A program made the translations under genes and the position numbers. Source: Lingula anatina (lineage: Eukaryota > Animalia > Brachiopoda). From it: a stretch of DNA of 64,000 bases. Positions within the stretch are counted from its first letter, which is position 1; each line of letters starts with the position of its first letter. The notes below the pieces were generated by a model. It saw only the letters and a list, made by a program, of their open reading frames with translations, searched no databases and was not told where the DNA came from. Shown one piece after another: positions 9,878 to 32,000 of this stretch. The DNA lies in contig CM120648.1 of assembly GCA_051362555.1 (NCBI GenBank), positions 8,800,587 through 8,864,586 on the forward strand, in the 5' to 3' direction.

Positions 9878-12088
9878 ATGGCAGGAAGCGATCCCTTGAA
9901 ATATGCCAATGAATTAGAATCGGTACTGAACCTTCTGAAAAATGATGCAGACTTGCGTGAAATGTTTAAGGTAAATGTGCTAAATAGTTTTGATCAGTAT
10001 TATCAACATGACAGCTTAATTGCCCCCCCCCCCCCCCCCCCTTAATTTGCATCTCTTATTCATGTAATGGTAGTACTAATATTTGAAATATTTTTTTATT
10101 GGGATATTGGGATTTTCATTTTGCTTTATTTGACAAAAGACCTAATCTAAAAATGCCCTTTTATATTAATTTTGTATATATTTGCAGGAGGGAGAGGTCT
10201 CTCAAGCCTTCAAGGAAATAGCCAGAGATCCATCAGCCATACCAAAATATCAGGAAAATGTCAAAATTCAAAAGCTTCTGAAAATGATGGGAGATAAAAT
10301 TCAGGGGTTTGCCACATCGGTTGTAGCTGAAAGTGACGCTTCTGCAACCACAGCCTCAGCTCAAGGTGACACTGTGGAGGTAATCACTCTTTTTTAGGTT
10401 GTTACTAAGTAAATTTGTGTCAGCAATAAATATTTTGTCATTATAAAGTCTCCTTAACAAACATGCTCCACATTCATCTTCTTGCACTGTAAACAGTACT
10501 GAGATTCATACACAAAATTCAGAAACTTACTGTTGTTAAAGGTACATGTATACTCCACATGTATGAAAATCACCCATGAAAGTCATTTATTCTTATGGGT
10601 GCATTCCCAGAGATTTAGATTGATCTAGAGATTTAGATTTAGATCCGCCTAACTCCCTGGGGGTTCTCGCTAAATTGCAGTCAGCCGTGCGCACACCATA
10701 GTTAATTACCCCCTTACAGCTTTAAGTAGGCGGGACAGACGCTTAAGCCAGCTAAGCTGACAGTAATCTAGTGAGACTCCCCACAGGGATAGAGCGATCT
10801 AAAATCTGTGGGAATGGGGTCTATGTCTTCACATATCCTGCAAAGCTACTACTCTTTCCCAATTCAGACCCTTTAAAACTATAAAACCCTAAAATAAAAG
10901 TAACTGACATCAGCAGTTCTCTCTGAAATGTACAAGAAGACTCAGTGCACTGAATGACTGGCCAGTCATTTACAAGTAATCGATCATTAAATTTAAATGG
11001 AATAAAACAACGAATCTAAGGGTAGGGGTGGGTCGAGCAATGATCTTTAGAATGAGAATTTTTTTCCTGAAGGAAATTCTTTTTGATGGGTGATGCAAAC
11101 AGTACCTTTGAATTAATCATAGTTACAGTTACTAGTGCATGCGAAAAAAGCGCAATGAGTACTGGTAATTTCTTAACTGCACGTAAGACATTCATAGTAT
11201 CAGTTTTTAGATAGTCTATGTTTTTAAAAAGAAAACCTTATTTTACAGTCATCAGAGGAATTAGCAATGGATGGAGAAAGCACAGATCTATTTGATGAAG
11301 ATGCTGCAGTGCAGCCTTTAGTGGGAGTAGATGTATTAGAACAGGTAAGGAAGATAAAAAAGTACAAGTTGAAGATTGCAATACCTCAGAAGACAAATTG
11401 GCACATTTCACATAATATCAGTATTTGCAAGTAACTGAAATCAATTAATGTGAAAAAGCTCATTCTACTGAAAAAATGAATATATTGGACCAAAGGTCAT
11501 GTCAGTGGTGCAAAAATTTTGTGTAATATTTTCATAATTGTTACATTTATCTTCTTCATTACTGTGTAGCATTAAACCGCAAAAATACTGGGGCGAGTCA
11601 AAATTATGCAACATGATACAAGATATTTACCACTGATTTGACTTAAATGTTCCCTTACAGACTTTTCTGTGAAATGACTCTAAAAATGAAATAATTGAAA
11701 TCTGTGAGTAATCTCTTTATATATAGTTAGGTTGCAAATCTGATTCTTTCTTTTAATACCTACTAAGAATTGGTGATATTTTCTAACTCTAGATACTACG
11801 TGCCAAGAAAGGGGACCCCAGCAAGTTTCAGAGTCACTGGGAGCAAGATGAAGAAGACATTGATTTTGCCACAGATGAGGAAATAAAAAGTGAGATACAA
11901 GAATTGCCAAATGTTTACCCTATAATATTCTGTCCTGCAGATGTTTTCATGCATTTAGTTTATTTAATTTTATTTTTATTTAGTTCATTTGATTTTTATT
12001 TATTGTCATTTGGAAAGTCAAATCAGCTTGGTTTCTGCTTGAAGAAATTTGATTACTTGTCATCAAGCATATTAAATGCTCTACTTAC

Positions 12089-12122
<34 letters not shown>

Positions 12123-12913
12123 GAAAGACAATCCAGTTCAGAGAATTCTGTGGGCTGCAGAGAATGGCGAAGTGGACATTGTGACTGAACTCTTACAGAA
12201 AGATGCATCCTTGATTCAAGCTGTAGATAAGGATGGCTATACACCTTTGCACAGAGCAGCCTACAATGGAGAGATGGACATTGTCAAGGTTAGATACCTA
12301 AAATTATACGTTAATGGCACTAAAGGGGTATCTTTATATTATAAAGGCCTAAATTTGTCAAAAATAGCTATTTTCATTGTTTCTTTTATGTGAACTACTT
12401 ATCTAATATTATTGCAGTATACATAAACATTTTTAGAGTACTCCATTTTTTGTTCCTTTATTCACCATCCCACTCTTTTCTGCACATACGTTCAGGTGAA
12501 AATCAAATTCTCTGGTATTCTCTGTTTTGTACATTGGGGCTATTCTAAGAGAGAATTAAAAAAAAAAAACATTTCAGATATTGCTGTCCCAGGGAGCAGA
12601 CGTCAATGCCCAAACCAAAGATGGCTGGCAACCAATACACAGCGCAGCGAGATGGAACCAGGTTGAGGTTGTCTCTCTCCTACTCCAAAATGGCGGCAAT
12701 ATCAATGCTCAAACAAATGGCGGTCAGACACCTCTGATGTTGGCAGCGTCAAACAGGGAAGGGAAAGAGACCACAGAGTTTTTGCTCATGAATCGTTACG
12801 TCGACCCACATTTGATGAACAATATTGGAGAGACAGCATACACATTGTGTCAGAGATACACTGGATTTTACTATCTATTTGATATTGTTCACCCGAGTAT
12901 AAACAGTTTTTGA
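9878..12913 (+). CDS. ANKRD49: Ankyrin repeat protein 49-like with N-terminal STI1/DP domain, ~324 aa; exons 9878-9970, 10188-10379, 11249-11344, 11793-11889, 12128-12288, 12578-12913
   Basis: All introns GT-AG with consistent phases (0,0,0,1,0); C-terminal part LWAAE...DGYTPLHRAAY...DGWQPIHSAARWN...TPLMLAA...LLMNRYV...YYLFDIV matches ANKRD49. Confidence 0.88.
10597..10821 (+). mobile_element. PIF/Harbinger-like MITE, copy 2 (ANKRD49 intron)
   Basis: GGGTGCATTCCCAGAG ... CTGTGGGAATGGGGTC, 3-bp TSD TAT; colinear with copy 1. Confidence 0.85.
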
Positions 12914-16407: not shown

Positions 16408-18299
16408 ATGGCGACCTCAATTTTCTCAACCATTCCTTTGTTGTTTTGTGCGGCGATCATCAGTTCTTCGACAGCATTCCGTCTTGACAGACTAGCATCT
16501 TTACGTCTACCTGTAAAAGAATCCATTGGTAAGTTTTTGTCATTTTTGTAGTTTTTCATCTCAGACTAAAAAACGGGCATTTGCCATGCATACAGTGCCG
16601 ACAGTATATAAGACAGTCCCGGACATGAATATTTCTGTTATCACAAATAATATAATATAATATATCCATAACTGTACAAGGTAATACCAAGAGAAACTTT
16701 CTTAAAGACTTAAGCATACTAGTGCGACTTTTGAGCAAGTATTCATAATTTACATGTATATATTCTTGTGCACTTCATGTAACAACAGTAACCAATATAC
16801 CACCTGCAACATGCTTATTTAAAGGAGAATTATAGAACTGTTTTATAAAACAGTATGCAGTGTGTGTGACACAACCTCAAGGTCGCTTCATCTGCATAAA
16901 CTCTTTCCATAATTACGTAACTCGATCATGGTTCCTTTTTCTAACTTCAGCGATACCGCTACCGTCGCCATCATGCCCAGCTGGACAAGTCCAAGAACAG
17001 ACGTCCTATCTTCATTACCCACAGCAAACCTACAGCACCGTATTCTGTAACTCGGTGGCCGCAAATGCTCAAAACGAATGCGGTTATCACTGCAAGAAAG
17101 TGTGTAGAGATAACCATGGAGCGTCTGCTACTGTGGCCAGTGTTACCCTGAACGCGTGCGTTCCGAGTAGTTCTGTGCCAGGATTTTCTTCCGGAACTCT
17201 TGTGAAGATGGATGTTTGCTGTTCTCCTCCACCGCCGCCATCTTGCCCAAGCGGACAGGTGCCAGAACAGACGTCCTACCTTCATTACCCACAACAAACC
17301 CACAGCATAGCATTCTGTAACTCGGTGGCCGCTGATGCCCAAAACGAATGTGGTTTTCACTGCAAGAAAGTATGTAGAGATAACCATGGAGCGTCTGCTA
17401 CTGTTGCCAGTGTTACCCTGAACGCGTGCGTTCCGAGTAGTTCTGTGCCAGGATTTTCTTCCGGAACTCTTGTGAAGATGGATGTTTGCTGTTCTCCACC
17501 GCCGCCATCTTGCCCAAGCGGACAGGTGCCAGAACAGACTTCTTACCTTCATTACCCACAACAAACCCACACCACGGCATTCTGTAACTCGGTGGCCGCA
17601 GATGCACAAAATGAATGTGGTTTTCACTGCAAGAAAGTGTGTAGAGATAACCACGGAGCGTCTGCTACTGTGGCCAGTGTAACTTTGAATGCTTGCGTCC
17701 CAGGAAACTCTGTGCCAGGATTTTCTTCCGGAACTCTTGTGAAGATGGATGTTTGCTGTTCTCCACCACCACCGCCATCTTGCCCAAGCGGACAGGTGCC
17801 AGAACAGACGCCTTACCTTCATTACCCACAACAAACCCACAGCACGGCATTCTGTAACTCGGTGGCCGCAGATGCTCAAAACGAATGTGGTTTTCACTGC
17901 AAGAAAGTGTGTAGAGATAACCATGGAGCGTCTGCTGCTGTGGCCAGTGTTACTTTGAACGCGTGCGTTCCGAGTAATTCTGTTCCAGGATTTCCTACCG
18001 GAACTCTTGTGAAGATGGATGTTTGCTGTTTGCCACCAACTTGCCCAGCTGGACAAGTCCAAGAACAGACGCCTTACCTTCATTATCCACAACAAACCCA
18101 CAGCACGGCATTCTGTAACTCGGTGGCCGCAGATGCACAAAATGAATGTGGTTTTCACTGCAAGAAAGTGTGTAGAGATAACCATGGAGCGTCTGCTACT
18201 GTTGCCAGTGTTACTTTGAACGCGTGCGTTCCGAGTAATTCTGTGCCAGGATTTTCTACCGGAACTCTTGTGAAGATGGACGTTTGTTGTAACCCTTAA
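16408..18299 (+). CDS. Secreted cysteine-rich tandem-repeat protein, ~489 aa (exons 16408-16528, 16951-18299): signal peptide plus five 83-aa 8-Cys modules with Pro-rich linkers
   Basis: Hydrophobic leader MATSIFSTIPLLFCAAIISSSTA; phase-1 GTAAGT..ctaacttcag intron joins it in frame to the long ORF; modules start at 16974, 17244, 17511, 17781, 18042. Confidence 0.85.
16974..18290 (+). repeat. Coding tandem repeat, 5 units of 261-270 bp
   Basis: Near-identical units; periods 270, 267, 270, 261 bp. Confidence 0.97.
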
Positions 18300-19754: not shown

Positions 19755-19825
19755 GCGCCGCTGGTGTAGTGGTATCATGCAAGATTCCCATTCTTGCGAC
19801 CCGGGTTCGATTCCCGGGCGGCGCA
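19755..19825 (+). tRNA. tRNA-Gly (CCC), copy 1
   Basis: GCGCCGCTGGTGTAGTGGTATCATGCAAGATTCCCATTCTTGCGACCCGGGTTCGATTCCCGGGCGGCGCA; canonical cloverleaf, A/B boxes, T-run terminator. Confidence 0.97.
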
Positions 19826-20073
19826 TACTTTTTTAGTTAAACTTTTCTTGATATGTTTTACTCACCTTAATAGTTTCATAGTTAAGTTTATAATATTATC
19901 TTTAGCACTGATCGCCAAAGATTCCTGTCCCCTGTCCACTGGAATTATAATTATGTAAGATTTTTACTTTTGCGACACACATTCTATTCCCTGGAAAACC
20001 TTACAAATTGTAGTCTATTTCATATTTGACTGCAATTTCCATGAATTCGAAATCGAACAACAGAAGAATAACA

Positions 20074-20144
20074 GCGCCGCTGGTGTAGTGGTATCATGCA
20101 AGATTCCCATTCTTGCGACCCGGGTTCGATTCCCGGGCGGCGCA
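20074..20144 (+). tRNA. tRNA-Gly (CCC), copy 2
   Basis: Identical 71-nt sequence. Confidence 0.97.
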
Positions 20145-20402
20145 TAAATTGTAGTTAAATTTATATGTAAATCACTTTTTCATATTTATTAAACTAGTAA
20201 AACTTATGCGTTACTCACCTTTATAAAATTATCTTTATCACTGATCGCGAAGGATGCCCCTGGTTCACTGGTTTGGTGAAAGATATTTATATTTGCAATA
20301 TGCATTCCATTCCCTGGAAAGCCTTTTAAATGTTTCTTTATAAATTCTATATATTTTATATATTTGTTAACAATTTCCATGATTACGTAAGTCCGATATA
20401 AG

Positions 20403-20473
20403 GCGCCGCTGGTGTAGTGGTATCATGCAAGATTCCCATTCTTGCGACCCGGGTTCGATTCCCGGGCGGCGCA
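20403..20473 (+). tRNA. tRNA-Gly (CCC), copy 3
   Basis: Identical 71-nt sequence. Confidence 0.97.
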
Positions 20474-20715
20474 TAAATTGTAGTTAAACTTTTATGTAAA
20501 TCACTTTTTCATATTTATTAAACTATTAAAACGTATGCGTTACTCACCTTTATAAAATTATCTTTATCACTGATCGCGAAGGATTCCCCTGGTTCACTGG
20601 TTTGGTGAAAGATATTTATATTTGCAATACGCATTCCATTCCCTGGAAAGACTTTTAAATTCTATATATTTTATATTTGTTAACAATTTCCATGATTACG
20701 TAGGTGCGATATAAG

Positions 20716-20786
20716 GCGCCGCTGGTGTAGTGGTATCATGCAAGATTCCCATTCTTGCGACCCGGGTTCGATTCCCGGGCGGCGCA
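20716..20786 (+). tRNA. tRNA-Gly (CCC), copy 4
   Basis: Identical 71-nt sequence followed by a T6 terminator. Confidence 0.97.
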
Positions 20787-20944
20787 CATGTTTTTCTGAT
20801 ATTTTCTCAACTGTTTTATGTCGAGTTTATCTTAAATGCTGTCACGTAAATTTGATAAACAATGCGTCTGTATGTGTGTGCGTGAGCGGCTCACAGCTAT
20901 ACGAAAAATAATGAACAGAAAGCAATGCTTTAGGTACAAAATAT

Positions 20945-23760: not shown

Positions 23761-25624
23761 CTGGAAAAAAGTTCAATATCAATTACACTTCTTCATACTT
23801 GTCTTTAACATTTCATATTGGTAATTAAATACAAAGCCTGCAACCAGCATTTCCCTGGGGGGAGTTTTTTTTTTTTATCTGGAAAAGTGGATCTTATTTC
23901 CTTTGAATTGTCACAACTTGAGAAATGGCTGGCATATAGCCTTGATAGAATTTGAATTCAGAGCAGTCTTATTTCGGAAAAAAAGGCAGTACTTTCAAAC
24001 CCTCCAAACCTGATCACTGAATTACATGGCATACTGACCTATCCACAGCTGACCATCAGTGTCCAGTTGAGTTGCCCCTTGCCTCGACACCTTGGTTATC
24101 GGCCGATTTCCGTCAACCGTTAACACTCCTTTCCTCTTGTCCCTAGTGTAACAAAAATAAGTTTCACCAAAGCTAGGTAATTTAAAGAATGTTTAAAATG
24201 ACAAAAGACAGATTAACAAATTAAGAATTATAAATTAAGAAGACAGATTAAAATGACAGATTAACACCCCCTCCTTTGCAGGCACCCTGCTGTGATGTAA
24301 TAATCTCCAGTAATCTGACTACGTATACTCCTCTACCACAATATAACATTTACCTGTAAAAAAGAGCAGACAGTTGCTCCTAAAAAGTCCAGATAAAAGA
24401 AATTCCTATGCAGAATGATCTGCTTTTTATTTCCGGGTATAAACATATTGCTGAACATGTTATAAATTGAATAAAACCTGGACGCAGTTAGTAGAAATCA
24501 CAACCTCTAAGCTCAATTGCTCTAGTTTAGATTATGTTACAAAATGAGGAGTCTACTGGAGTGAATAAATAAATAAATAAACAAAATCTTTATGTCTGAT
24601 ACAAATAAATTGTACTATGTAAATGAAATTAATGAAAGCTTTGTGCCAGTAATTGTTGCTGAATGAGCAAATTGCAAGCCTTGAAAAAATTACTGATTTA
24701 AAATAGTACATCGATGGAACTTTAAAATACTATACTCAGGCACCAATACTCAGACACCTTCATTATTGGAACAAAAAAATAATAATAATAAAAAATAGGA
24801 AATAAAAATAAAAAAATGGCACTTATATCTGAAAATTTGTAGAATACTCAAAAACTTAATACAATTGAGAATAATTTGCAGTTAAGAAAACAGTAAGTTA
24901 CCTCTCAGCTATTATTGTATGCCAGTCGCCATCATCTACTCGCACTGCAGATCTTATTTTATGGATGTCAGTGGGTGATTGTTTTCCTAGATTGTAGCTA
25001 AACTCTACGTGACCATTCACTATAGCTAGGGCCAGGTAATCTCCTCTAATGGTAGGACTTTTGTGAACTATTAAAACAAGGCCGTTCTTTTCCGTCGTTC
25101 TAAGTCGGATAAGGTATCTATTTTGCCTTTGACTGCGTTGTCTGAAAAAAATTGAAAAGCAAATCAAAATTAAGTGTAATTTTTTACATTTTTTAAATGA
25201 AAAATTTTAAAACTTGGTTCAATTATGGCTATCACACTTAAATTTCAGTGACACCACTAATAAAAAAAAAAATTAATATTCATCCTTTCAGGCTGATCAC
25301 TTGAACAATTCTAGATGGTAACCAAACTCTCTTTCCTTAACCTGAAAAATTATTTTTCAGGAATCTCCAACTGCAAATTATTTTGCAAAATACTTATTTA
25401 GTATTACTTGTCTATAAATGTAGTAAGAAATTGCCATACCAACAAGTTTAAAAATCCAAATAATTAAAATAACATATAAGTTAAAGGTTTCAAACAAAAT
25501 TTTAAAATAATTCCAATGACAATAAAATGCACATTTGGAAAGCTGTATATTATGTACTCTTATAATGATTAGTCCTTTTTTTAAAGTTCCACATAATGCT
25601 TTTTCTCAATACAAAACAAAGCTA

Positions 25625-25663
<39 letters not shown>

Positions 25664-28610
25664 TTATTATTATTATAATTATTATTATTTCTTGCACATT
25701 AAATAACTATATTCTATTAGTGTGTTTGTGAAAAAAATCTGTGAACTGCAATAAAAAACTGTGACCAATCCTGTGATGAAATATTTAGGCCCTAAACTAG
25801 AATGACTCTGCTAAAACTGCTTTAAAACTAAAGGAATGAAGTAGACAGTTTTCATGAATCTGCAGCAAAACCAAACTAATACCTCCAACCAGTATATTTC
25901 ATTGAGTAAAAGTCATCTTCTTCCTCGAGTTGGTTTTAAAACAGTTTTAAGTGACCCGTTGGTGGATGGGGCCTTAATCATTAGGTGAAATGGGGTGAAA
26001 TAAGTATTTATAGTACAGACAAAAAACTCTTTCATCACCCTCCAACAGTTAATTTGAAATATATCAAGAGTAGTCTACATAACTGTGTTGTCTTAACAGT
26101 TTTCAAACTTCTACATTTTTTTCACATTTGAATTCTAAATAATAAGAGAAACATTAACACTATCAACCCAATGTGAACAGTTCCTCTAAATGTGATGAAT
26201 CAAGTCTCTGAACACAAAGATGTGGCATTAAATAGTATTGAAAGAACAAAATGAGAAGAACAAAATGAATAATGTGTAAAACCATGGAGTACCTACTAAA
26301 CACAACTTCAAGGTTGCAAGACTTAGTGATATACAGCAGTATACTACTATTGAGTGAAGGTATTATAGAAGTGTTCAAGAAATTGTCACAATACAGATGA
26401 AAATAAAAATACTGATAAAATCACATTCCACCTTCTGAAACTTTCAAGGCAGATGAAAAAGTGCCATATTGCTAAAATAAGAGAACAAAGTGTTTTCTTT
26501 GACATCATGTTCTCTTGTTCTAAAAAGTGAATATTACTAGAGAGAAGGCAGATTTGACTAAATCTGGGTTTAAAGCAGAACAAAATTTTCTTCACAAATC
26601 AATTCTTTACACAATTTCACAGTATTTAAATAATATTAAAAACATATCAAGGCCAACGTAGAGAAAGTTTTCAAACATCTCTATTTTTCTATTTTACTCT
26701 TTTTACAATTTATCATCTCAAACATTTACAACAACAACTGTCTATTCAAAACTTCAGCATTCTTTGGTAGAAAATACTAACAAAACATGTCTGAAGGGGG
26801 GGGGGCAATCATCACACTTAAAGTCAGCTTTAAAATATCTGCCTTCTCACACACAAAAAAAGAATAGAATGCCAAATACTAAAACAAAAGAAATAACAGG
26901 CATCTTCAGGAAATAATACTCAGTTATCAGAGACCCGTTTACCTGCGAGCCAACTCCACTAACAGCTTTCCTAATGTTTTAACATCCATTCCTTCCATTA
27001 CTGCCCAGCTGGATAAACATACGTGGTAATAAGGTGACATGCATTTTACATGCAAGTGTTACATTAAGCTTTCAGAAATATCCCCCTTTGATGGAAATCC
27101 ACACGCTTATTTTTGTGTCAAAATTTTTAAAGGGGTAAGAACTCTTCTTATTGGCCATAAAAATGCCTTAAAAAGATTTTCCTGTGGTAAACGACAATGT
27201 TTCCATTACTTAATAATAGGTAACGAACTAGTTCCAACATTCAAAGTTAATCAATTGTGCTTTTTGTAATTATCTATTTTAAAAGAGATTTTTATAGAGG
27301 GTATCAAACTATAAAGGCTCATGTGGTCCAATGTCACACACAGATTTCAGAATAATTAATATATTGCAATAAATGCTGCTTCATTGGTAAAATGGACTTC
27401 TCTGTGCTGTTTACAATGTATTTATTGTGGAATTTTGAATCTCAAATGAAAAGTTGTTATCCCTTCCAACAAATTTCAAGTGTTTTTGCCTTATATAGTT
27501 CATATATGCCCATAAAGCACTGTTAGACCCTTCTCACAGTGTGCTGTGTGTTGTTTTCTGACATATAATTTGCTCCAATTTGACAGAATGTCAACCTGAT
27601 AGCCTGGATTTTAATTCAACCTTTACAAATTTTATTTTTATATAATTATTCATGAATACCAGGACATTTCTTATTTCAATGGATGACATCTGTGGATTTC
27701 ATCAAAATATTGGGGATATATCACTGAAGTAAAAACAAAAATACCATGCTGTAAGATTAAAAACAAACACCTTTTTCAATTTCTGTAAATAATAATAAAA
27801 AAAAAAAAAAAAAAAAATCACTTGACATAAAATATGTCAATATGCATATTATTTTCACCCAATTATTTAACACGTTTTGTTAATTTATTGTTAAATAACT
27901 CAAACCAAACCTTATCTAAATTAGTGAAAAATCAAACATGTGAAAATGTCTCAAAATAAAAATAGTGCTAAAAAAGAAAAGAAATCTTGGGAAAAAAATT
28001 CTACACATACATCGCTGTCTTGTCTAGGGTCTTGTTCTTGAGTGGGCTGCAGAATCAAACATTTGAGGCTTGTTAGAAGTATAATGCACACTCTAAATCA
28101 CAACCAAACACAATGAAGAGAAGTCTCAACTAATGCATTCATAGCACATAGAAAATATCATTCTACAGCAAATATATTCTCTATACAGCAGCTGTTTGCT
28201 ACACAGTTTCAATACACACACCTACGTGCTGTATATTACACTAATCACAAAAAGATACATATTTTTCTAATTAAATCTGAGATCAATCAGTTATTAACAA
28301 AATTAACAAATATACAGCAGATCATGTTTTGAAGATAAAAAAAAGAGTGATCTTAAAAGTAAAATTGCTCATTATTCTAATGAACATAAAAAAAACAGAG
28401 ATTTGTGCATAGAACTGAAAATGGTGGTTTTTATTTCATTCCCTCTAAATACATGCCAATCAATAAAATCTATGTGCAACTTAAAACCTCACAGCCTTTA
28501 TTTGTCACCCATGGTGTAACAGATAAAAAGAGTGATATAATAATAATAATAATAATAATGAAAACTGCCATAACCTTTGTATTGAGTGCATTTCAAGGTC
28601 CACACATTTT

Positions 28611-28688
<78 letters not shown>

Positions 28689-28999
28689 CCCTATATACAG
28701 AACATGTGGAGTGTAGCATTAAAATTTCTTTTATAATAACTATGGTGGATGCAGTGTGCTCACTGGTAAGAATATGAACCAAAAACTCAGATTATCCTCA
28801 AACCAGCATGCATCTATGATAAAGGTTTCTTCTTCCCATTAATAATTATGTAAAAGGTAAAGAAATGCATACTTACTTCCTCACAGCTTGGTTATCATAC
28901 TGTAGAAAAGTTGACCCGTCAAATTGAACGGGACTGTTTTTGTCGATGTCAGTTTCTGAAAATGAAAATGAAATGAACTGAAATTATGGGTGTTATCAA

Positions 29000-29030
<31 letters not shown>

Positions 29031-32000
29031 TCAATCAGGGAATATACAGACCACGTGAATATCAATACTGGAATCTATCAAAAATCAAATCAAAATATTA
29101 TGAAAGCATATTCATGTACCAATATTAAACCACATACTAAATATCATTTTAGGAATTAAAAGAATTAATATGAAAATTCAACTTAAACTCATAATTAGTA
29201 AAACCATCAAAACAAAACAAGGCATTATCACTATATATTACTATAATATACCTCTCTGACAATGTTCCCCAGTATATCCTATTCTACATTTACACTCGTA
29301 TTCCGCTAATTTTGGCTTACAATAGCCGCCATTTTGACAAGGGTTGCTGGTACAGGGTGGCCCCTGATATATACCCATATGTTCATTGGCTACTGCACCA
29401 GCCAGTAAATTATCATACATGCGCCCATTTATGTACAGCTGAAAGTATATACAATTGACCCCATTTACATTTCACAAGAAAGTTGAATATGTGATAGCAA
29501 CTTTAAAAGTAGCAAACTGACTTTCTTCAGTGCTTATGACAATTAATTGTAACATCATATTTTATCTAAAAAAGGATTTGATTCTGAACATAGTTTACTT
29601 TGAATATCAATTCTTATACATAACTCGGTATAAACTGAGGGTTCCATCAGCAGCAATATTAAATTCCTGCTTCAAAATATTTTTAAAATAAAAAATAAAT
29701 TTACTTACTCTCTGTATAGCACCATGGAAACCGGACTTAATACCGGAGTCTGGGTTGATAGAGCTTTTGTCTTTAAAACCACCTATATAAAGCGGCTGTC
29801 CAAGATTAAGATCTTTCAAAGTTCCCTAGTGAATTATGAAAAAAAAGTAGGTTGTATATAAAAACTAAGAATGAACATGATCAATGTGTTTTCTCTGAAG
29901 TAAAAGCATCACACACACACACAAACACACACAGATACATTGTACAATCTCTTCTTCTTCTCTCTCTCTCTCTTCACCAGTGTTCTTCCAAAAATTCTTG
30001 AGAGAAACCTACACAGAAATCAACCTGTTAAGCAAAAACTTGTAAGCACAGTGCATACATGTATATGCCTACTATCACACTTAGTTTCCAATTTTACTTA
30101 ATGGCAAAGTTTAAATTCATCCTTACCTTGGATTGCCCTGACTGACTGACAGAGGTGCCATTTATAATCATGTTGCCTTGACGATTTCTCCTCTCAACCG
30201 TCACTCTGTGCCACACATTCAGAGCAATGCGTTTGGGTGATCTGAAATTATTATAGTAGCTCCATATGAATAAGATATGAATTTGGTGGTATGAATTTGC
30301 CCCAATAGGTGGCACCCCAGAGCATGCTAAGAAGTGCAGATGAAAAACATAAATGAATATTTTGGGCTCTGTCTTCCAATTTTGTACACATACTTGTCCT
30401 GGCTTATCCATAAGTAAAGATGCTACATAATGAACTGAAAACAATTATGATTTTTAAGACACAGTAATCTGATCTACATATAATCTTCACATAAAAATGT
30501 GTATCAAATTGCTAATTTTTTATATAACATTGTCTGAGAAAATAAAAGAATAATTTTCTTATACAACCCCAAAATTCTTAAAATCACATTATATTTAAGA
30601 GGAAAAAAATTCAAACTTACTTTATATAGGCAGGGCCTCCACCAAGATCAAACTTGAATTCCAGGAAGCCATTTTTAAGGTTTAAAGAAATGAAGTCCCC
30701 TTTCCCATTAGCTCTCTGGCCACAGTATAAGATCATGCCTAGCAAGATGATAAGGACACATTTCTACCATACTACTTATAAGTAAGTTTTTCAAAGTTTT
30801 TTTATTTTAAATGTCTGAAATTCTGAATTGAATCAATTAAATTCATTTATCCAATCTAGATATTGAGACAGTTTATCGGCATATTAAAAACTGCAGATAC
30901 ATTTCAATATAATTAACAGATAAGGAAAGAAAAGGTTAATAAAAAAAAATGTTTATGATTTGTATGTTTAAATTCAAAGTATGAGAAAAGGAAAGATGAA
31001 GGACAAGGTAGTCAGAGCAGAGGGAGGGTAAAAGAAGAGCCATCATACCATTTCCTTTGGTGGGTAAAAACCAGACTTCAAAGGCTATTGCCCTAAGGAC
31101 ATTGTCATTGAATTCCCTTTCTATGTAAGAATTTCCATTGAATTCAGGGATAGTATAGAGTGGCAAGGTCGTTGGTGATACAAGTACTGAAAAAATATAT
31201 ATACACTTCAAATGATACAACTTTTAATGAGGAACATATAAAATTAGTCAATTTTAACACCCAAGTTTGATATATCAACAGAAAATGTAGAAATACTATA
31301 TAACACTGTCAAAAAGTTGCATACTCTGAGATTTTAAAAAATTTATAAAATGAAATGTGCTCAATGGCAAGTTTTAAAGTACTGATAAAAACTTCTAATT
31401 TCTGAACAATAATATTAAACTAGTCTGAAAAAACAAACAAGTTTAATCAAATTAGATTAGTTTAAACACACAAGCACTTTCATGCTCCCAGCTAGGAAAC
31501 CAGACCATTTCAAAATTATGTCACAAAGAACTATTTTTAACCATATGACCTACAATTTTCACAATACTGGCCACTCCTCCCACTGGGACAGTTGCATTTG
31601 ACCTCATTATCTGACACCACCTGACAGGTGGAGCCACCTTCACAGGGGTTTGAAGAGCACGGGTCCCTCCCCTCTGCACACTGTGGGCCTGGTGAAAAAA
31701 TTACAAATAATAACAAAAATAAGTTTAAAATGTTGAATTTGGAATCACAACCAATATACTAGTAAACATTTACTGAAAGGTGATTAAATAATGCGATTTT
31801 TGTAAGTATACATTAAATTGGTAGCACATAGAATAGAAGGAAGCAGTCAAATGAAATTTATTTGACAGACATGCTGTGTGTGCTCACGCTTGATTGGAAT
31901 CAAACATTTGAAGTGGTATCCTTGTATTATATAAACAGAAAATACAATGATGTTTCAGAAGTTACAGATGTACTGGTACTGCTAAGGTGGAGATTTCTTT

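Follow-up and report, generated by a model that had tools for sequence, protein, structure and literature searches.

In chordates, agrin carries a splicing switch at its Z site: neuron-specific inclusion of Z exons results in LRP4 binding, MuSK activation and clustering of acetylcholine receptors, and Nova-binding YCAY motifs lie downstream. The locus described here raises the question of whether such a switch exists outside chordates. A preliminary description of a 64,000-nt stretch of Lingula anatina (brachiopod, lamp shell) DNA, hereafter the window, proposed three cassettes of 15, 36 and 66 nt at this site, up to eight isoforms, and a possible equivalence to the chordate switch. Known chordate Z exons comprise vertebrate z8/z11, Ciona Z6/Z5 and a putative amphioxus Z exon (PMC12445529). 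Earlier papers, drawing on few invertebrates, restrict the B/z site, or else its motif or exons, to vertebrates or chordates (PMC1939731, PMC2874008, PMC12445529), and Z exons are reported to be absent from C. elegans agr-1 (PMC1939731) and sea urchin agrin (PMC12445529).

The gene is agrin, as first described. Its exon at 24902-25141 is 100% identical to Lingula anatina agrin, and P0002 has the agrin architecture by Pfam (NtA, Kazal/follistatin repeats, laminin-EGF, and three LG domains with EGFs). Human agrin is the best PDB sequence match (1045 bits), and fold matches agree. Three features on the minus strand define the site:

28877..28955, minus strand: constitutive exon that encodes the linker and the first LG3 strand of agrin, ending in the split codon AA (phase 2); RefSeq match, RNA joints at 28955 and 28877
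25142..28876, minus strand: Z-position intron, 3,735 nt, phase 2; from the sequence; the alignment in S2 Fig of PMC12445529 puts the chordate Z site at this codon position
24902..25141, minus strand: constitutive exon, core of agrin LG3; identity to Lingula anatina agrin, RNA joints

The upstream exon (28955-28877) ends in AGG AA before gtaagt, and the downstream exon starts at 25141, preceded by ttttttcag. The proposed equivalence to the vertebrate z8/z11 position holds: the intron lies exactly at the chordate Z position, at the start of LG3. Its unusual length was also correctly noted (3,735 nt vs 240-759 nt for the other 13 introns between the first LG1 exon and the last exon); introns further upstream in the gene reach 10.5 kb.

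Within this intron, one cassette is verified:

28011..28046, minus strand: alternative 36-nt cassette exon, adding 12 residues (a single K becomes 13 residues); RefSeq models, RNA joints

The exon is present in five of seven RefSeq isoforms and in P0001, and absent from isoforms X5 and X6 and from P0004. For RNA, nine runs were selected by species label and four were mapped (~6, 6, 6 and 25 in 100 of reads); in run X4 the agrin exons were not covered. Examination of joints across 28877>25141 revealed 36-nt inclusion joints besides the direct junction. Run X2 contained 5 and 7 inclusion reads at the two joints and 0 skipping reads, while run X7 contained 6 and 3 inclusion reads and 27 skipping reads (~14% inclusion). 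By Fisher test on read counts, in which duplicates are possible, the runs differ at p=0.0009 for the upstream joints and p=1e-5 for the downstream joints. This difference could be genetic rather than tissue-related, because many sites in X7 depart from the window sequence. Alternative splicing at the Z intron of a non-chordate is thus borne out, with the exon both included and skipped. The 36-nt exon had already been part of the RefSeq models, unremarked.

The other two proposed cassettes fare differently:

28226..28240, minus strand: 15-nt candidate that would read N-V-I-Y-S-T, probably chance; strong donor, weak acceptor, intron-like content
26943..27008, minus strand: 66-nt candidate exon (22 aa), exon-like, unconfirmed; top splice score among the 125 segments, unmatched across 32 kb of other introns

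All three AG..GT segments (28240-28226, 28046-28011 and 27008-26943) are present, are multiples of three, and are open with the translations given earlier. Segments of this kind are not rare in themselves, because in the Z intron 125 AG..GT segments of 6-99 nt are in frame and free of stops, vs 105 +/- 15 expected from 200 dinucleotide shuffles. By splice score among these 125, the 66-nt segment ranks 1st, the 36-nt segment 2nd and the 15-nt segment 8th. When exon-like content is considered as well, the other 26 introns (32,028 nt) contain 0 equals of the 36-nt or 66-nt segment and 25 equals of the 15-nt segment, or ~2.9 per 3,735 nt. Judged by its sequence, the 66-nt segment resembles an exon more than chance would give, but it is a candidate only: its splice score is reached in 12% of shuffles, read depth is 0 in its bin in all four RNA runs (three of which cover agrin exons), and it appears in 0 of 9 Lingula protein models and in none of the RNA joints listed. 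Its interpretation as a tandem duplicate of the 36-nt exon was rejected: out of 45 comparisons, this single pair gave a peptide p of 0.03-0.04, the two do not align convincingly as DNA, and they are not spanned by any repeat family.

The 15-nt segment is the one on which a chordate-like switch would depend. In that reading, a neuron-specific, z8-like N-V-I microexon followed by the 36-nt and 66-nt exons would produce LRP4-binding neural agrin. The order of a motif-bearing microexon before a motif-less one is that of z8-z11 and Ciona Z6-Z5, and the donor is strong (9.0), yet the acceptor (-2.3) scores below all 28 real acceptors, ~6 segments scoring like this candidate arise per shuffle, and an equal-scoring segment bearing N-x-I/V/F arises in 62.5% of shuffles. 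N-V-I itself was rejected as support, because its N is supplied by the split codon (AA+T) and the motif occurs in 30 of the 125 chance segments. In Ciona, too, the Z exons went unannotated until they were sought, the runs carry no tissue label, and three inclusion reads are flagged 'between: not known'; still, of the 39 joints that start at the upstream donor, 36 cannot accommodate the segment, and it occurs in 0 of 9 Lingula protein models and in none of the RNA joints listed. A 7-aa insert of Littorina carries N-T-I, but its 7-aa counterpart in Babylonia is motif-free. A constitutive N-x-I/V just upstream, present in most agrins, is missing in Lingula, which would also fit this reading. On balance, the 15-nt segment is probably chance, and a chordate-like switch in Lingula is improbable. 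We give no better odds to its broader form, in which the Z switch would predate chordates, Lingula neurons would include the cryptic N-V-I microexon before the 36-nt exon to form an LRP4-binding agrin, and other protostome cassettes would be relics or reinventions of a bilaterian neural slot.

The three-cassette system therefore stands only in its 36-nt member, the only cassette found in protein models and the listed RNA joints. Two isoforms (with and without the 36-nt exon) are shown, not eight, because the 66-nt segment has no reads and the 15-nt segment is chance-like, with no listed joint for either.

The verified 12-residue insert lacks the LRP4-binding motif N-x-I/V/F and does not resemble z8 (6 peptides, shuffle p 0.66) or z11 (12 peptides, p 0.28); across all three segments, comparison with both sets gave no homology (p 0.14-0.66). 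A resemblance of its TLDxxAI to rodent/primate z11 was discarded as not significant (p 0.28, 12 vertebrate z11 peptides). The suggested equivalence to the LRP4/MuSK switch is consequently not supported by the verified exon, N-V-I being found only in the unconfirmed 15-nt candidate. The Lingula cassette resembles chordate Z exons in its gene, its phase-2 intron position at the LG3 start, its short, frame-preserving length, its isoforms with and without the insert, and its inclusion that varies between samples. It differs in lacking the motif and any z8/z11 similarity, in being single, and in having no overall YCAY enrichment. C. elegans agr-1 and sea urchin agrin share the LG3 frame of Lingula but are reported without Z exons, whereas Lingula has a spliced insert.

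In the structure model, pLDDT is <50 at residues 27-45, with the insert at 29-41, and the top fold matches are agrin G3 structures (3v64, 8s9p, 1pz7-9). We consider it about an even bet (~50%) that this single 36-nt cassette adds 12 residues to a loop, predicted to be flexible, at the LG3 start, where it likely does not operate an LRP4-MuSK switch and likely retunes the LG3 surface. Lacking the receptor-binding motif, the insert would likely fail to activate LRP4-MuSK signaling, and the protein would likely be tuned differently from the vertebrate switch. PMC6966886 describes the z site as hyperflexible, near the Ca2+ site and binding LRP4 via NxI. Because the vertebrate site adjoins the Ca2+ site, the Lingula loop, which appears basic and has an N-K-T glycosylation sequon, would shield or reshape the surface contacted by glycan or protein ligands, dystroglycan for example. 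A general sequon rule was rejected: one is present in Lingula and in 7 of 8 long arthropod inserts parsed (Laodelphax left out), and in 0 of 7 short snail and scorpion inserts. Neurexin splice sites are likewise splice inserts in surface loops of LG/LNS domains. The Lingula loop would be neurexin-like in that short loops added by splicing tune a ligand-binding LG domain, although gene and site differ.

A floppy surface loop with the frame kept would also tolerate a lineage-specific, nearly neutral exonisation. Constraint on the peptide looks weak: in a diverged variant form present in the reads, the ends of the 36-nt exon show 4 non-synonymous and 1 synonymous differences, vs 5 and 21 among the differences listed for constitutive exons (p=0.017). 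This excess fits near-neutral exonisation too, as do the low model confidence at the loop and the finding of no homologous insert in any other genus. However, the variant retains exon length, frame and both splice sites, the exon has exon-like composition, and the absence of skipping reads in X2 contrasts with X7. We regard near-neutrality as unlikely.

The splicing signals bear on possible neural regulation:

25951..25998, minus strand: densest YCAY cluster of the Z intron, 6 sites, significance doubtful; window shuffles
28072..28076, minus strand: CTAAC motif resembling a branch point, 30 nt ahead of the 36-nt exon; from the sequence, function putative

Microexons are usually limited in size such that 36 nt falls at the long end and 66 nt beyond. 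YCAY is not enriched overall in the Z intron (60 vs 55.7 +/- 6.0 in shuffles), so YCAY counts were rejected as evidence of Nova regulation, and this counts against a chordate-like switch. The densest cluster, ~2 kb downstream of the 36-nt exon, is reached in 3.6% of shuffles at a 60-nt window and in 6-89% when three other window sizes are used; clusters as dense or denser occur in two other long introns. Exons dependent on eMIC are reported to have UGC near the 3' splice site, a strong branch point, a long AG-exclusion zone and a weak donor (bioRxiv 10.1101/2021.02.24.432780). The short, frame-preserving 36-nt exon resembles eMIC/SRRM neural microexons in its weak donor (5.7), CTAAC at -30 and TGC at -5, but its AG-exclusion zone is short (20 nt), a UC-rich tract is absent, and TGC occurs at the same place in 6 of 28 real acceptors.

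Among 45 named protostome species, 15 have predicted agrins with Z-site inserts (brachiopod, caenogastropod snails, scorpions, beetles, planthopper and crustaceans), and 10 species have forms both with and without; models of the other 30 show no insert. The inserts are 7-179 aa long, patchy and unrelated between groups, and only 1 of 8 short ones carries N-x-I/V/F; the Lingula insert is not similar to the 7 others (p 0.44-1.0). By hand, inserts were tallied in 3 of 25 molluscs, 11 of 19 arthropods and 0 of 12 bivalves, the last to be read cautiously because predicted models miss microexons (the Ciona Z exons themselves are cryptic). The census covered named agrins with a located LG3 start, setting aside proteins without one (9 in one set), fragments, non-agrins, mis-anchored long matches and unnamed representatives; a 1-aa Scylla variant counted as no insert. 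Literature searches found no report of protostome Z-site splicing and nothing relevant on invertebrate MuSK/Lrp4 orthology. The view that the switch is known only in chordates accordingly splits: the N-x-I key appears chordate, while splicing at the site is far wider.

This distribution could reflect an alternative, neurally regulated Z slot in the bilaterian ancestor, with present cassettes as diverged descendants and N-x-I added later by chordates. Brachiopod, snails, scorpions, pancrustaceans and chordates share the position, short loop peptides diverge fast (even Ciona Z5 is unlike vertebrate z11), and the eMIC-like features would fit, but so would their exceptions argue against it, as do the dissimilar inserts, the many insert-free models and reported absences in C. 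elegans and sea urchin, and the reported parallel evolution of fly and mammal microexon programs. Such ancestry seems doubtful. Under the favored reading of a retuned LG3 surface, the Z intron would be a permissive slot that repeatedly gained cassettes (brachiopod, caenogastropods, scorpions, pancrustaceans and chordates), and only chordates would have placed the conserved N-x-I key in it. The chordate novelty is, on comparative grounds, likely the motif and not the splicing.

These observations separate two features that are usually lumped together: Z-site splicing, which is widespread (verified for the Lingula cassette, predicted only for the snail and many arthropod cassettes), and the N-x-I key, which appears chordate. 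They suggest a route to the vertebrate neuromuscular switch, in which a short receptor-binding motif may have landed in a loop that already tolerated, and often received, alternative exons.

The agrin gene of Lingula anatina lies on the minus strand, where RefSeq isoform X2 (protein model P0005) maps as 28 exon cores from 63259 to 23615 together with a 36-nt exon. The protein carries the agrin domain set (NtA, Kazal, laminin-EGF, EGF and three LG domains in a domain search), has human agrin as its top PDB match, and over exon 25141-24902 is 100% identical (79 aa) to Lingula anatina agrin-like proteins. A Lys codon, seven places past the conserved Tyr of the first strand of the third LG domain (LG3), is split in phase 2 by a 3,735-nt intron, the Z intron. 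The preliminary description had singled out this 3.7-kb phase-2 intron as far longer than its neighbours, rightly so, as the 13 others between LG1 and the final exon measure 240-759 nt. Its placement at the vertebrate z8/z11 position also holds, the split Lys occupying the column of the mouse, human, Ciona and amphioxus Z inserts (S2 Fig alignment, PMC12445529, excerpt).

Exons and candidate segments at the Z intron
28955-28877, minus strand, upstream exon, ending AGG AA before the intron's gt
28876-25142, minus strand, Z intron
28240-28226, minus strand, 15-nt candidate segment
28046-28011, minus strand, 36-nt exon
27008-26943, minus strand, 66-nt candidate segment
25141 (start), minus strand, next constitutive exon, 3′ of the Z intron

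Three cassettes had been proposed here, of which the 36-nt segment is a real exon. It is present in five of seven RefSeq isoforms and in model P0001, and missing from isoforms X5 and X6 and from P0004. Reads came from four of nine RNA runs, sampled at about 6, 6, 6 and 25 in 100 of each, the splice joints listed excluding those with fewer than three reads. Run X2 gave five upstream and seven downstream inclusion joints and no skipping; run X7 gave six and three, with 27 skipping (~14% inclusion); run X1 gave one skipping joint, and run X4 reads did not cover the agrin exons. The difference between runs X2 and X7 (p 0.0009 and 1e-5, from read counts) may stem from tissue, stage or genotype, the runs being listed without tissue and the X7 reads departing from the window sequence at many positions.

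The other two segments fared less well. The 66-nt segment has the top splice score among 125 in-frame AG..GT segments (equalled in 12% of shuffles), and a GC content of 45% vs 30% for the Z intron; no segment in 32,028 nt of other agrin introns equals it on splice and content scores together. Read depth in its bin was 0 in all four runs (X4 being the one lacking agrin-exon coverage), and of the 38 joints entering 25141 not one started from it, an upper bound of about 8%; a rarely used exon is plausible, unproven and somewhat doubtful. The 15-nt segment has an acceptor score under all 28 real acceptors, by splice models trained on only 27-28 sites of this gene, and intron-like content, with about three equals expected per intron length. 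Among 39 upstream-donor joints, 36 allow no space for this segment; the other three are flagged 'between: not known'. True neural microexons can have weak acceptors, which leaves this segment, probably a chance match, a small likelihood of being an exon.

A second alternative agrin exon, 30 nt long (36926-36897, minus strand) and encoding 10 aa, is left out of RefSeq isoform X4 and is also flanked by longer introns (872 and 2,438 nt). At 28924, in exon 28955-28877, a His/Gln change (Gln in the window, His in run X7 reads) is the sole difference within the RefSeq pairs X1/X2 and X5/X6, which suggests that the RefSeq assembly holds two allelic copies of this exon, so that some listed isoforms may be artefacts. 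A dispersed repeat within the Z intron (27398-27465, also at 29673-29696) is not an agrin exon; reads from all four runs fit it partly, on both strands. Just past the agrin 3′ end lie four tandem tRNA-Gly(CCC) genes (19755-20787, plus strand, ~320 nt apart). One uninterrupted reading frame of 487 codons (16836-18296, plus strand) encodes five Cys-rich repeats of ~90 aa with Pro-rich linkers, for which Pfam gave no convincing family, and open segments at 11228-12910 (plus strand) belong to an ankyrin-repeat gene, Pfam Ank being confirmed on 12560-12910.

The 36-nt exon turns K into [13 protein letters not shown], a basic stretch with an N-K-T sequon. The verified insert lacks N-x-I/V/F, the motif that agrin requires to bind LRP4 (PMC6966886, excerpt), and resembles none of six z8 and 12 z11 peptides from vertebrate agrins; a constitutive N-x-I/V just upstream of the Z site is absent from Lingula agrin as well. 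YCAY (Nova) sites in the Z intron number 60, vs 55.7 +/- 6.0 in shuffles, and a six-site cluster (25998-25951) is marginal. A full chordate-like switch, as first proposed, is improbable; alternative splicing at the Z position stands, in the form of one cassette used in some transcripts only. Lingula shares with chordates the homologous site and its alternative use, and on present evidence its cassette falls outside the chordate Z switch, because the motif is absent.

Modelled by AlphaFold2 on an 11-sequence alignment (mean pLDDT 78), the insert-bearing LG3 has its best structure matches in agrin G3 (3v64, E 4e-18); pLDDT drops below 50 at residues 27-45, which may also reflect that no other alignment row spans the insert. 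The insert would form a flexible, basic loop next to the Ca2+ site of LG3, possibly glycosylated, and would thereby retune how partners, glycan or protein, are bound. Without the insert, vertebrate agrin is a strong binder of alpha-dystroglycan (PMC1939731, excerpt); neural agrin, the negative control there, differs at the y site as well. A read variant of the exon keeps length and frame and alters three residues; at the exon ends it shows 4 non-synonymous to 1 synonymous differences, vs 5:21 among those listed for constitutive exons (p 0.017). Neutral exonisation is an unlikely reading.

Insert sizes in other animals were measured, in fetched agrin sequences, as the distance between two anchors on either side of the Z site; the method recovered the 0/8/11/19 forms of vertebrates as well as an insert of 8 aa that matches the published amphioxus peptide. 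By hand tally, models of 15 of 45 named protostome species have an insert of at least 7 aa, and 10 of the 45 have both insert and insert-less forms.

Z-site insert sizes in protostome agrin models (aa)
Both forms, short: Lingula 0/12; Littorina 0/7/10; Babylonia 0/7/9; Pomacea 0/10 (two pipelines)
Both forms, short, scorpions: two Centruroides species 0/11
Both forms, long: Photinus 0/56; Onthophagus 0/48; Portunus 0/149; Eriocheir 0/149
Insert-only models: Penaeus japonicus 179; Petrolisthes 140; Laodelphax 63; Tigriopus 53; Cryptolaemus 43

From their position, these would be cassettes of the same intron. Predicted proteins had no insert in 12 of 12 bivalves, four Haliotis, two Biomphalaria, Aplysia, Gigantopelta, Nucella and a chiton, nor in four Penaeus, krill, Scylla (1-aa variant only) and two spiders, which is weak evidence of absence. 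N-x-I/V/F occurs in one of eight short inserts (N-T-I, Littorina 7 aa) and is lacking in the Babylonia 7-aa counterpart; Asp/Glu makes up 31-41% of the long inserts of pancrustaceans, most of which have N-glycosylation sequons. Patchy distribution and unrelated insert sequences favour repeated gain of cassettes in a permissive loop, to which we give a probability of about 0.5, over neutral exonisation, the full chordate-like switch and a Z slot inherited from a common ancestor, which is likewise unlikely.

The long acidic inserts (43-179 aa) comprise four from decapods (P0021, P0032, P0023, P0122) and P0037, P0353, P0063, P0354 and P0025; their use is alternative in Portunus, Eriocheir, Onthophagus and Photinus. 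Common to the decapod four are a block rich in sequons at the N-terminal end and a Gly-Ser-Gly with acidic flanks, the latter resembling a glycosaminoglycan attachment site. Caenogastropods have two distinct short inserts (7 and 9-10 aa; Littorina P0015, P0125, P0126; Babylonia P0338, P0434, P0435), never co-occurring in fetched models. Two more distant LG-domain proteins (P0249, P0274) have 18- and 14-aa insertions at the matching position, hinting that the loop may be permissive beyond agrin.

In the excerpts available, Z exons are described as a chordate-specific innovation, after checks in C. elegans and sea urchin, those of Ciona having been cryptic (PMC12445529); the A/y and B/z sites are concluded to be vertebrate-specific (PMC1939731), and the motif is stated to be missing in invertebrates (PMC2874008, whose Fig S8 alignment could show insect inserts). 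We found no report of protostome Z-site splicing in a literature covering few subscription papers or splicing databases, where an earlier mention is possible. What Lingula has at the homologous site is a genuine alternative cassette, which belongs to a broader pattern among protostomes that has apparently gone unremarked.
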